Below, piece after piece: positions 1 through 1,598 of a stretch of 64,000 nucleotides of DNA; within the stretch, counting starts at the first letter, position 1; each line of letters begins with the position of its first letter. The stretch is taken from NCBI GenBank assembly GCA_002010215.1, contig MTMY01000033.1, positions 1-64,000 on the forward strand, given 5' to 3'. Made by a program: the position numbers and the translations under genes. This DNA is from Archaeoglobus sp. JdFR-37. Lineage in GTDB: Archaea; Halobacteriota; Archaeoglobi; Archaeoglobales; Archaeoglobaceae. The notes beneath the pieces are model-generated. The model ran no database searches. It had not been told where the DNA came from and saw nothing but the letters and a program-made list of their open reading frames with translations.

Positions 1-111
1 AATCTTTCCTTGATTTTTTCCGACTAAAACAGGCTTTCTACGCTTAGGACACCAGACCAAATGGTATTGGATTAGATACACTTTGTTTCTTGAATGTTGA
101 TGATTGCCCAT
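1..111 (-). mobile_element. tnpA: IS200/IS605-family Y1 transposase TnpA, 5' part (runs off window; apparent +1 frameshift in a 6-A run)
   Basis: Manual translation from ATG at 111: MGNHQHSRNKVYLIQYHLVWCPKRRKPVLVG, the typical TnpA N-terminal YHxVWCPKxR motif; removing one A gives ...VGKIKER. Confidence 0.85.
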
Positions 112-178: not shown

Positions 179-198
179 CCCCTCGTTGAAACGAGGGG
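179..198. repeat. IS200/IS605-type subterminal hairpin (element end upstream of tnpA)
   Basis: Perfect 8-bp stem CCCCTCGT-TGAA-ACGAGGGG in the context TTCATCCCC...GGGGCTTTC typical of IS200/IS605 ends. Confidence 0.75.
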
Positions 199-270
199 CT
201 TTCTTAGATAACATGTTTGGGCTTCCGTCCTTAAATGTTTCAAATAAGAATAAAAATTGGAGGAGATAAC

Positions 271-1253
271 ATGGGCGGAAGCCAAGTGTATGTAGGGGTG
301 GATGTACATAAGAATTACTCCTGGGTATGTGCAATGGATGAGGAGGGCGAAGTCCTTTTCGAGAAGAAAGTGAGATCTGAAGAGCTCGAAGATGCAATTA
401 AAGAGATCCCTGGAAACAAAGTCATCATCCTTGAACCAACTACAATAACGATGCCGATAGCAACAAAGATTCATAAAGCTATGAACGTTAAGCTCGCACA
501 TCCTTTAAAAACTAAGCTTATAGCAGAATCAAAGAAAAAGACAGGCAAAGTAGATGCAAAGGTTCTTGCTGATTTAGCAAGAGCAAACTTTTCTGCCTGA
601 AGCTTATCTACCACCAGACGATATACTAGAGCTAAGAGAAATAATCAGGGAAAGAGTGAGGCTGAAAAGACTATCAGTTTCGATAAAAAAACAGAATTCA
701 CTCAATTCTTGTAAAGAACGGAATAAAGATAGACAAGCCATTTACGAAAGATGGAAGAGGAGAACTTAGATCTATGGGAAATAAGTGGATAGATCGCTAC
801 TTAAGAATTCTTGAGAGAATAGAGGATGAGATAAATGAGATAGATAAGGAGATCAAGAATATATGCCTTATGAATGAGGAAATATCAATTCTGCTTACAA
901 TTCCAAGAATAGGCTATTTCTCAGCTCTATTAATTTACGCAGAAGTTGGAGATATAAATCGATTCCCAAACTCGAAAAAGTTGTGCAGCTATGCAGGCTT
1001 AGTTCCAACTGTTAGGCAATCAGGGAACAAGATAATCAGAGGGAGAATAACGAAGGAAGGAAATAAGCTGTTAAGATGGGTTCTTGTTCAGTGTGCTCAT
1101 ATGGCTGTAAGGAAGGATGAAAAGTTCAAACAGTTCTATGAAAGAATAAAACACAGAAAGGGTCCTCAAAAAGCTATAATAGCTACAGCAAGAAAACTAC
1201 TAACGGTGATTTATGCATGCTGGAAGAATAGAACTGCTTACGATGAGGGCTGA
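271..1253 (+). pseudogene. IS110-family recombinase/transposase, disrupted
   Basis: GVDVHK, ILEPT, YAGLVP..RQSG, ITKEGNKLLRWVLVQCA motifs; +1 frameshifts at T-run 589-592 and A-run 685-691 (correction restores NFLPEAYLPP and IKNRIHSIL); KTGKVDA instead of KTDxxDA. Confidence 0.9.
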
Positions 1254-1403
1254 AACCCGGAATGTCGCTGGATTGATTAAATCCGTTTCTTAGATTGGGT
1301 TAGGCCCTCACCGAACGACTGTTAATGTGGGGGAACCTCGGATGGAAGCTTGTCGATAAAAAGATAATAATAAGAATAAGATGATAAAAAGAGGGTGAGG
1401 GTT
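1254..1403 (+). ncRNA. Putative bridge RNA / seekRNA of the IS1111-type element
   Basis: Two stem-internal loop-hairpin modules whose loop strands match the target (TTTCTTAGA; AATGTC) and donor (ATGGAAGC; TGTTA) junctions; long-range stem CCCTCACC 1305-1312 / GGTGAGGG 1394-1401. Confidence 0.7.
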
Positions 1404-1598
1404 GGGGTTGAATAAACTTTAACTACTAAATACTATCACCTTTGGTCGGAAGCCCAACATGGAAGCGACGTTTTGTAAAAGAAAAATCTCCTTTCGCAAG
1501 AGAAGGTATGTGGGTTACTTTCACCTGTAATGCGAAATTCTAAAAAAGAAAAACTTCGATCAACTGTGAAATCTCTCCTCAAACGTGGCTTCTCGCCT

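Follow-up and report, generated by a model that had tools for sequence, protein, structure and literature searches.

What is the insertion sequence that lies at the start of a contig of the archaeon Archaeoglobus sp. JdFR-37, and could it still move under the guidance of an RNA of its own? The DNA considered here (the window) consists of the first 64,000 nucleotides (nt) of contig MTMY01000033.1, in assembly GCA_002010215.1. An earlier note, drawn from the letters alone, had proposed that it carries an archaeal element of the IS1111 type, with a transposase gene followed by an RNA with two internal loops, four segments of which would match the element's own junctions. Such bridge or seek RNAs have been demonstrated in bacterial elements; they are predicted for 93% of the IS1111 elements of ISfinder, and a 2024 preprint puts 662 archaeal IS110 recombinases on record. 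Our answer, in which we have considerable confidence, is that positions 208-1463 hold a decayed insertion sequence of an Archaeoglobaceae archaeon, belonging to the IS110 family and to its IS1111 type, that it is bounded by a duplicated AG core and specifies a predicted bispecific RNA at 1242-1355, and that the copy in the window is a non-functional fossil.

A member of the IS110 family in Archaeoglobaceae

The protein displays the two domains of the IS110 family, DEDD_Tnp_IS110 on its N-terminal side (PF01548, E 1.2e-12) and Transposase_20 on its C-terminal side (PF02371, E 2.9e-28). With the NCBIfam profile NF033542, 'IS110 family RNA-guided transposase', for which the cut-off is 140 bits, the C-terminal fragment alone reaches 161.7 bits, and one relative reaches 275 bits. 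Two further features of the family are present: a 2-nt core flanks the element and occurs in its target, and the arms of a target loop and a donor loop match flanks and ends, as witnessed by the conserved structure and by the covariation of guides with flanks and with ends. No Rfam family matches positions 1-2000 of the window at E <= 1.

Elements of the IS1111 group are recognized by subterminal inverted repeats (sTIR), a non-coding region (NCR) downstream of the transposase gene (tnp), a transposase of 330-350 amino acids (aa) and a GL-P----S(T)G motif, according to the seekRNA study (Siddiquee et al., 2024; PMC11187229). Here the repeats are 14 nt long, within the range of about 7-17 bp, and 93% complementary; they had been announced correctly, and a distance of 9 nt separates the left one from its end of the element, against 6 nt for the right one. 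Non-coding DNA amounts to 210 nt on the 3' side against 63 nt on the 5' side, and the longer region, with the RNA, is downstream of tnp. The transposase of relatives has 342-344 aa, and the motif reads AGLVP(S/T)xRQSG both in the window and in these relatives. Finally, the RNA arm complementary to the top strand (1261-1269) is placed 5' of the arm complementary to the bottom strand (1286-1295). Layout, transposase length and motif, taken together, thus argue for the IS1111 type, and on this point family profiles and layout bear out the earlier note.

In its own genome (52 contigs, 94.5% complete) the element is present as one copy, only the window being matched. Relatives are found in other genomes: a DNA search gave matches in 15 of 61 related genomes, the own genome counted, and a protein search in 22 of the 96 genomes of the class at E <= 1e-30, the hosts falling in Archaeoglobaceae (Archaeoglobus, Geoglobus and metagenome-assembled genomes of Archaeoglobales). 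Ten other copies have the layout of the window and make up what we term subfamily A (G007a, G007b, G070, G021, G037, G082, G065, G081, G005 and G034b, named after their genomes); seven of them are complete and three are fragments. Most of what follows depends on comparison with these copies.

Core dinucleotide and ends of the element

Where does the element begin and end? AG is the sole dinucleotide common to all junctions, 8/8 on the left and 14/14 on the right (11, with three more found later). On the left it stands directly before A(T/C)AACATG (8/8), and on the right directly after ...ACAT(G/A)G(A/G/T) in 11/11. The core is placed at AG because of this constancy, because of the uninterrupted sites of three relatives, because of an uninterrupted homologue of the element's own target, and because CT and AG are invariant in the arms of the target loop. 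On this evidence the insertion site of the window element is TTTCTT-AG-CGACGTT, that is, a left target (LT), the core and a right target (RT), the core being CT on the strand opposite the transposase gene. The earlier note had the element run from 209 to 1466 with a GA core; its left end was off by 1 nt and its right end by 3 nt, and its core has to be replaced by AG at 206-207 and 1464-1465.

Uninterrupted sites provide a ruler. For G065, the four closest uninterrupted sites in congeners (L100-L103) measure 28 nt between fixed landmarks, counted by eye, exactly the length of LT+AG+RT, where a GA register would give 30 nt. At the four other candidate loci, the flanks are adjacent in L104 (length uncounted), one flank is missing in L105, and L106 and L107 align only further out. 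For G021 both flanks were found at 8/8 candidate loci: three have exactly the expected length, two have a left-flank match that ends further from the junction, and the three closest are taken up below. The nearest site (92-94% identity) reads CCCTTTT-AG-TTAGCTA, and one congener has TTT-AG-TTAGTTA, the exact sequence predicted by the RNA arms. For G007a, the joined flanks are found in its congener G034, again with the length of LT+AG+RT. As for the window itself, where the left flank is the end of an IS200-like element, an 83% identical copy of that element in G020 reads through the junction as GCTTTCTT-AG-CGAC and then diverges.

Other searches of this kind returned nothing. In the own genome the left flank was not found elsewhere, and the predicted target had no exact match elsewhere; with up to two mismatches it had 0 forward and 5 reverse matches, against 13 and 11 for a control pattern. 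Starting from the right-flank gene, no orthologous empty site was found (the gene survives in G020:C13 at 85% identity, the intergenic DNA does not); no empty sites were found for G007b and G070, only one flank being present in congeners; and the metagenome scan contained no independent insertion of the exact window element, the same locus alone being returned.

With AG as the core, the circle formed by the excised element would be joined as ...ACATGGA-AG-ATAACATG..., so that one would expect the string ACATGGAAGATAACATG from the circle and TTTCTTAGCGACGTT from an empty allele. A relative of the G007 type would give the circle junction ...CACATGGG-AG-ATAACATG, to which either GA model would add 2-3 letters, and would be expected at targets of the form (G/T)TTT-AG-TTAGTTA; G065 would give ATGGT-AG-ACAACATG. 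Because core and ends had been misplaced, the empty site predicted earlier and the target proposed for amplification of the circle junction by polymerase chain reaction (PCR) were wrong.

Could the core nevertheless be GA in another register, LT...A-GA on the left and ...ATGG-GA-G on the right, as the G007 group allows? The junctions of that group do contain both AG and GA, and the empty site of G007a aligns with a GA core when a 2-nt gap is granted. We nonetheless regard this as very unlikely: the right-junction cores of the window and of G065 would then be mismatched (AA and TA), mismatched cores being required in G081 as well; the predicted sites would be 2 nt longer than the four uninterrupted sites of G065 and 3 nt longer than the nearest site of G021; and the invariant CT of the 5' arm would match only one of the two core letters.

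State of the transposase gene

The gene is spread over three frames, and it stops at 1251-1253, earlier than the frames of relatives. Intact catalytic residues D-E-D-D and Ser, found in the relatives, are not all present in the window: the third acidic residue is Gly, at the position of D102 in the published numbering of IS621, while the four other residues are there. Mutating any of D11, E60, D102, D105 and S241 of IS621 abolished recombination (PMC11208160/PMC11208158). The earlier note had held the recombinase to be repairable by reverting two indels and one Asp-to-Gly change, which is an undercount, a fourth lesion being the Arg found at an invariant Gly (906-908). Both frameshifts recur, with no indel variant, in contigs from runs X1-X3 and in a metagenome contig of the Joint Genome Institute (JGI), L136, the only return of the metagenome scan, which represents the same locus with 1 mismatch in 2895 nt. 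The contigs of run X4 do not cover 470-830 or about 1274-1340, hence neither frameshift site. A protein search of the own genome found no other transposase of the family at E <= 1e-30. With four lesions and no such protein found in its genome, the copy is read as a fossil: it would be an IS110 member by descent, now inactive, and its sequence suggests a young fossil, with RNA arms and ends almost perfect and nothing left to move it. What had been announced as a programmable recombinase is, in the window, a solitary relic, and it is the intact relatives that could be working recombinases.

That the copy still functions, either because its frameshifts are sequencing errors or because slippage in transcription or translation at the T4 and A7 runs gets round them, is most unlikely. 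It is true that both shifts are single extra letters in homopolymer runs, and that guides and ends are nearly undamaged. Yet the same letters, with no indel variant, are seen in the independently assembled contigs of X1-X3 and in L136 (although their source may be shared), two separate +1 corrections would be required, the element is present in the genome as a single copy, the DEDD set has lost an Asp to Gly, at a residue whose mutation in IS621 abolished recombination (PMC11208160/PMC11208158), and an invariant Gly has become Arg.

A predicted bispecific RNA

The RNA starts within the last codons of the transposase gene. Folded alone, the window sequence yields two stem-loops with internal hairpins and a basal stem (-38.8 kcal/mol, z = -2.19, 5 of 200 shuffles being as stable). 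The fold is kept in an alignment of 10 sequences and 151 columns, from which G007b was left out as identical to G007a: standard pairs fill 95.7% of the cells, a share that drops to 33-48% once the 3' partners are shifted by 1-3 columns. Compensatory, two-sided changes affect 11 of the 29 pairs and occur in four of the five helices, while 0/500 shuffles do as well. As the CGAC/GTCG helix is without variation, covariation is silent about it. RNAalifold proposed for the second domain a structure of its own, different from the CGAC/GTCG closure; this was set aside, and the closure was kept as invariant and matching the single-sequence fold. A covariance model has matches in 12 of 96 genomes. Ten of the matched copies are the training sequences, among them the window RNA (E 3.2e-23), and copies outside the training set include G063:C71 (E 3e-26) and a decayed copy, G071:C26 (E 1.6e-12). 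Folding the region and building a covariance model from archaeal homologues was a check proposed earlier, and it brought out a shared structure, compensatory changes and untrained copies. The two loops that had been described are recovered in the fold; what had been overlooked is the basal stem, 1242-1251/1303-1312.

The strings on which the first reading was built are all where it had put them: AACCC (1254-58) and GGGTT (1297-1301), AATGTC (1261-66), TTTCTTAGA (1286-94) and the hairpin GGATT/AATCC (1270-74/1280-84) in the first stem-loop; CGAC (1316-19) and GTCG (1352-55), TGTTA (1320-24) and ATGGAAGC (1342-49) in the second; and GA at 207-208 and 1467-68. That four segments match the element's own junctions holds for the arms, while their registers and the core had been read wrongly (Table 1).

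In the window considered alone, the 10-mer match of the target loop (TTTCTTAGAT) is reached in 3/2000 shuffles and the 8-mer of the donor loop (ATGGAAGC) in 56/2000. It is in the relatives that the arms become telling. CT of the 5' arm and AG of the 3' arm of the target loop are invariant in 10/10 RNAs; AG of the donor 3' arm is kept in 9/10, the decayed G081 having GG. The donor 3' arm, compared with element end, AG and first flank letter, matches at 8/8 positions in 7 of 11 copies, at 7/8 in three and at 5/8 in G081. It takes four states that track the end of the element (ATGGA, ATGGG, ATAGG and ATGGT), and its eighth letter (C, T or A) varies with the letter that the target 5' arm sets as the first of RT. 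The left end covaries too, GTTA/TAAC alternating with GTTG/CAAC and AGAT with AGAC, and G065, with its left end ACAACATG, has AGAC and GTTG. Cognate target matches average 4.9/7 (LT) and 4.1/7 (RT), against 2.6 and 2.3 for non-cognate pairs; over the eight sites with both flanks the summed match score is 76, against a permuted mean of 51.3, and is reached in 19/20000 permutations. Covariation of guides with flanks among homologues, another check of the earlier note's own making, therefore came out positive. We propose that 1242-1355 encodes a bispecific bridge/seek RNA with a target-binding and a donor-binding loop, its transcription, its ends and its binding by the protein being predictions.

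In the target loop, the 3' arm has the top-strand sequence of LT and core and would pair with the bottom strand, the 5' arm being complementary to core and RT of the top strand; the arms of the donor loop would do likewise for the circle junction. Past the core, each 3' arm goes on with letters that fit the other DNA partner, AT in the target loop and C in the donor loop, in the manner of the handshake guides of IS621. By analogy with IS621 and ISEc11, a tetramer of the DEDD/Ser recombinase with its RNA would align the circularized element and the target, and then exchange strands at the core.

Several points weigh against this reading as a whole. The two complementary matches of the window are not above chance when taken alone, 6-nt exact cores being found in 1281 and 1089 of 2000 shuffles, so that support for them comes only from the relatives. 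RT matches are weak, 2-3/7, in G007a, G070, G005, G034b and G081; the donor 5' arm pairs over 4-5 nt only and displays no visible complement to the core; the CGAC/GTCG stem, being invariant, has no support from covariation. There are only about three to four distinct guide lineages, and as the elements are related, permutation and shuffle figures overstate independence. As regards the sites, the three closest loci of G021 (25 nt between the aligned parts of the flanks) are 1 T short of LT+AG+RT, in a T run; the empty site of G007a can also be aligned with GA, at the price of the gap mentioned above; the uninterrupted site of G020 is a homologous IS200-like copy in another genus, diverging 4 nt after the core; and neither an orthologous empty allele nor a circle junction of the window copy was seen in the genomes or in the contigs of the four runs, which contained no such joints. 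Lastly, both frameshifts lie in homopolymer runs, and the runs that reproduce them may be the assembly's own source.

Might the conserved 3' region be something other than a guide RNA, either binding sites of the transposase at the DNA level or a transcription terminator, the flank matches being by-products? The invariance of the CGAC/GTCG stem would suit such a role, which is nevertheless extremely unlikely: four of five helices show compensatory changes, the mark of selection on a fold of RNA (or of a single strand), the arms vary in step with flanks and ends, and the architecture equals that established by experiment for IS621 and ISEc11 (PMC11208160, PMC11208158, PMC11187229). The chances of the first placement (209-1466, GA core at 207-208/1467-1468, empty target TTTCTTA-GA-CGTT, circle junction ATGGAAGC-GA-TAACA, that is, the string ATGGAAGCGATAACATG) are close to negligible: although the window does have GA at the two positions, and this single sequence does admit such a reading of the four arms, the 8-nt equivalent of ATGGAAGC is followed in ten related right ends by TG, TA, TT, TA, AT, TC, TT, AT, TT and TT, hence by GA in 0/10, the uninterrupted homologue of the target reads ...TTTCTTAGCGAC... 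and not ...TTTCTTAGACGTT, the empty sites of G065, G021 and G007a fit AG, and the extra pairing of the target-loop 5' arm through GC and CT is left unexplained. The search for other copies and empty sites, also suggested earlier, has thus placed the ends elsewhere, with no GA core.

Table 1. Positions of the element, its predicted RNA, its lesions and its left surroundings in the window
Feature	Position	Strand	Description and evidence
IS200-like Y1 transposase gene, N-terminal part (left neighbour)	1..111	-	Runs off contig start; Pfam PF01797 Y1_Tnp, E 6.8e-5
Hairpin in end region of IS200-like element	179..198	.	CCCCTCG-TTGAAA-CGAGGGG, read from letters
Left target (LT)	200..205	+	TTTCTT; identical to RNA 1286-1291
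Left core copy	206..207	+	AG (CT on other strand); AG at 8/8 left junctions; homologue GCTTTCTT-AG-CGAC
Element proper	208..1463	+	1256 bp, ATAACATG...ACATGGA; ends from alignment to relatives and their empty sites
Left subterminal inverted repeat	217..230	+	Repeat pair I1, 14 nt, 93% complementary
Transposase pseudogene	271..1253	+	Three frames, 271-591, 593-685, 687-1253; Pfam, NF033542, translations
Gly codon at third acidic residue of DEDD (KTD-VDA)	544..546	+	GGC; Asp/acidic in 9/9 homologues, ISCro4, IS621
Frameshift 1	589..592	+	One extra T in T run (T4), frame 1 to frame 2; alignment with intact relatives
Frameshift 2	685..691	+	One extra A in A7 run, frame 2 to frame 3; alignment with intact relatives
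Arg codon at invariant Gly of IPGIG motif	906..908	+	AGA; Gly in 9/9 homologues, ISCro4, IS621
Conserved Ser codon of RQSGN	1020..1022	+	Intact; nucleophile position in IS621 (S241); alignment
Predicted bridge/seek RNA domain	1242..1355	+	About 115 nt; fold, covariation, covariance model
Basal stem	1242-1251/1303-1312	+	Fold and covariation
P2 (second stem)	1255-1258/1297-1300	+	AACCC/GGGTT; fold and covariation
Target loop 5' arm	1261..1269	+	AATGTCG-CT; complementary to core+RT AG-CGACGTT (1464-1472), one G:U
Inner hairpin of first stem-loop	about 1269-1285	+	Fold
Target loop 3' arm	1286..1295	+	TTTCTT-AG-AT; identical 10/10 to 200-209 (LT, core, first 2 nt of element)
Closing stem of second stem-loop	1316-1319/1352-1355	+	CGAC/GTCG; single-sequence fold, invariant
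Donor loop 5' arm	1320..1324	+	TGTTA; complementary to TAACA (209-213)
Inner hairpin of second stem-loop	1328-1340	+	Fold
Donor loop 3' arm	1342..1349	+	ATGGA-AG-C; identical 8/8 to 1459-1466 (last 5 nt of element, core, first RT nt)
Right subterminal inverted repeat	1444..1457	+	Partner in pair I1
Right core copy	1464..1465	+	AG at 11/11 right junctions and 3 further ones
Right target (RT)	1466..1472	+	CGACGTT; 6/7 Watson-Crick and one G:U with target-loop 5' arm; CGAC after AG in uninterrupted homologue

Likeness to known systems

IS621 is the best documented counterpart (Durrant et al., 2024, PMC11208160; Hiraizumi et al., 2024, PMC11208158; PDB 8wt6). Its core is CT; the guides that pair with the bottom strand are LTG and LDG, those for the top strand RTG and RDG, and the handshake guides are two letters past RTG and RDG which, once strands have been exchanged, pair with the DNA of the partner. 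The present element resembles it in having a target and a donor internal loop, in each of which either DNA strand has its own arm, a core of 2 nt (CT when read on the other strand), post-core letters matching the partner DNA, and a transposase with DEDD and Ser residues (sequence match E 1e-16). It differs in that its RNA is 3' of the gene (5' in IS621), arm order and strand are mirrored, the sTIR are long and the donor 5' arm has no complement to the core; there is also no evidence of a junction promoter, archaeal promoters being outside the comparison. Read on the strand opposite the transposase gene, the layout is that of IS621 in mirror image, the 3' arms and the letters added to them being the equivalents of RTG and RDG and their handshake guides. 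This agrees with what is reported of IS1111 seekRNAs, where the top-strand match is 5' of the bottom-strand match, both overlap in the target, and the order is reversed with respect to IS110 (Siddiquee et al., 2024; PMC11187229).

ISEc11, ISPa11 and ISKpn4, of the IS1111 group, are alike in their subterminal repeats, in the long NCR downstream of tnp, in transposase size and motif, and in the position of the top-strand-complementary RNA segment 5' of the bottom-strand one, with matches overlapping in the target (PMC11187229). This likeness is one of layout and of transposase size and motif. The present host, unlike theirs, belongs to a hyperthermophilic archaeal family, the RNA of the present relatives begins inside the transposase frame, and the window copy is a pseudogene. 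Among solved structures, the transposase of ISCro4 (PDB 9t56) is the best match (E 3.2e-18 over residues 7-325), the DVxK, E, TDxVDA, IPGIG and SG motifs being aligned; ISCro4, however, is bacterial and only distantly similar, and the likeness covers the protein only.

Relatives and surroundings

Intact genes of 342-344 aa are found in four copies with listed reading frames (G007a, G021, G037 and G007b, identical to G007a), and these relatives are likely the active forms. The two G007 copies (L044 and L066, on G007:C1) do not differ over 1216 bp (100% identity), contain an intact 344-aa gene and occupy two loci of a complete one-contig genome, which points to recent movement; within the lineage, the pair is the best candidate for activity. 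In relatives (e.g. L044:2500-2593) the transposase frame extends across both the basal and the second stem and across the 5' arm of the target loop, with a tail ...GEECTPVTNWA, which makes the right-target guide also a coding sequence. The spacer between RNA and right repeat (1356-1443) is about 90 nt long in the window, A-rich then G-rich (GAGGGTGAGGGTTGGGGTTG), and much longer than in relatives of the G007 type (about 25-45 nt).

Part of the left repeat (220-230) is also complementary to the first transposase codons (273-283, ATGGGCGGAAGCC; 11 nt, 91%, pair I4), and both strings are conserved among relatives; in read-through transcripts the pair could form a hairpin of the 5' untranslated region and so mask the start codon. 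From the left end, 33 nt (204-236) recur with 2 mismatches in another contig of all four runs X1-X4, between different flanks; this would be a solo end, or else a related element, of another organism in the same samples. A second IS110-family lineage of Archaeoglobaceae, with about 50% protein identity (L050, L051, L052, L054, L057, L059, L067 and others), has a 5' non-coding region of about 130 nt, a short 3' region and ends reading ...ACATGTTGGAACCC / GGGTTCCACATAGGTG; like the IS110 group, it probably has its RNA upstream.

To the left of the element, the IS200-like gene at the contig start carries on in L136. The insertion point is 8 nt past the IS200-like hairpin, and a homologous hairpin with altered stem letters exists in G020:C19 (L137, about 1880-2000). 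An IS200-like element with its hairpin at the left flank, and an uninterrupted related copy elsewhere, indicate that the IS1111-type copy landed in the end of another mobile element. In all four runs the neighbouring DUF4387 gene (1617-2000) is covered by a relative that is present in greater abundance and about 86% identical, with 53 differences in 384 nt; upstream, this relative carries the same sequence as G020:C13, without the element.

Significance for Archaeoglobaceae

A literature search found no description of a bridge RNA from Archaeoglobaceae or from any hyperthermophilic archaeon, and the supplements of two 2024 papers, in their text (each also holds one unreadable PDF), contain no entries for Archaeoglobus, Ferroglobus or Geoglobus. 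It is quite possible, if somewhat short of probable, that the intact relatives, the two identical 1216-bp copies for example, represent an active bridge-recombinase lineage native to hyperthermophilic archaea, with an RNA overlapping the 3' end of the gene and a mirrored layout, having its CT core on the non-coding strand and its handshake letters on the 3' arms. The lineage shows the IS1111 layout to be that of IS621 read on the other strand. For any PCR or reprogramming experiment the junction is now corrected, and practical value is to be sought in the intact relatives, not in the dead copy of the window. The lineage also offers a clean set of alignable RNAs, in which filled and empty sites give a direct reading of all four arms, of the core and of the handshake-like positions. 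If the intact relatives do form an active lineage, their system would lend itself to reprogramming at high temperature and to the engineering of archaeal genomes.

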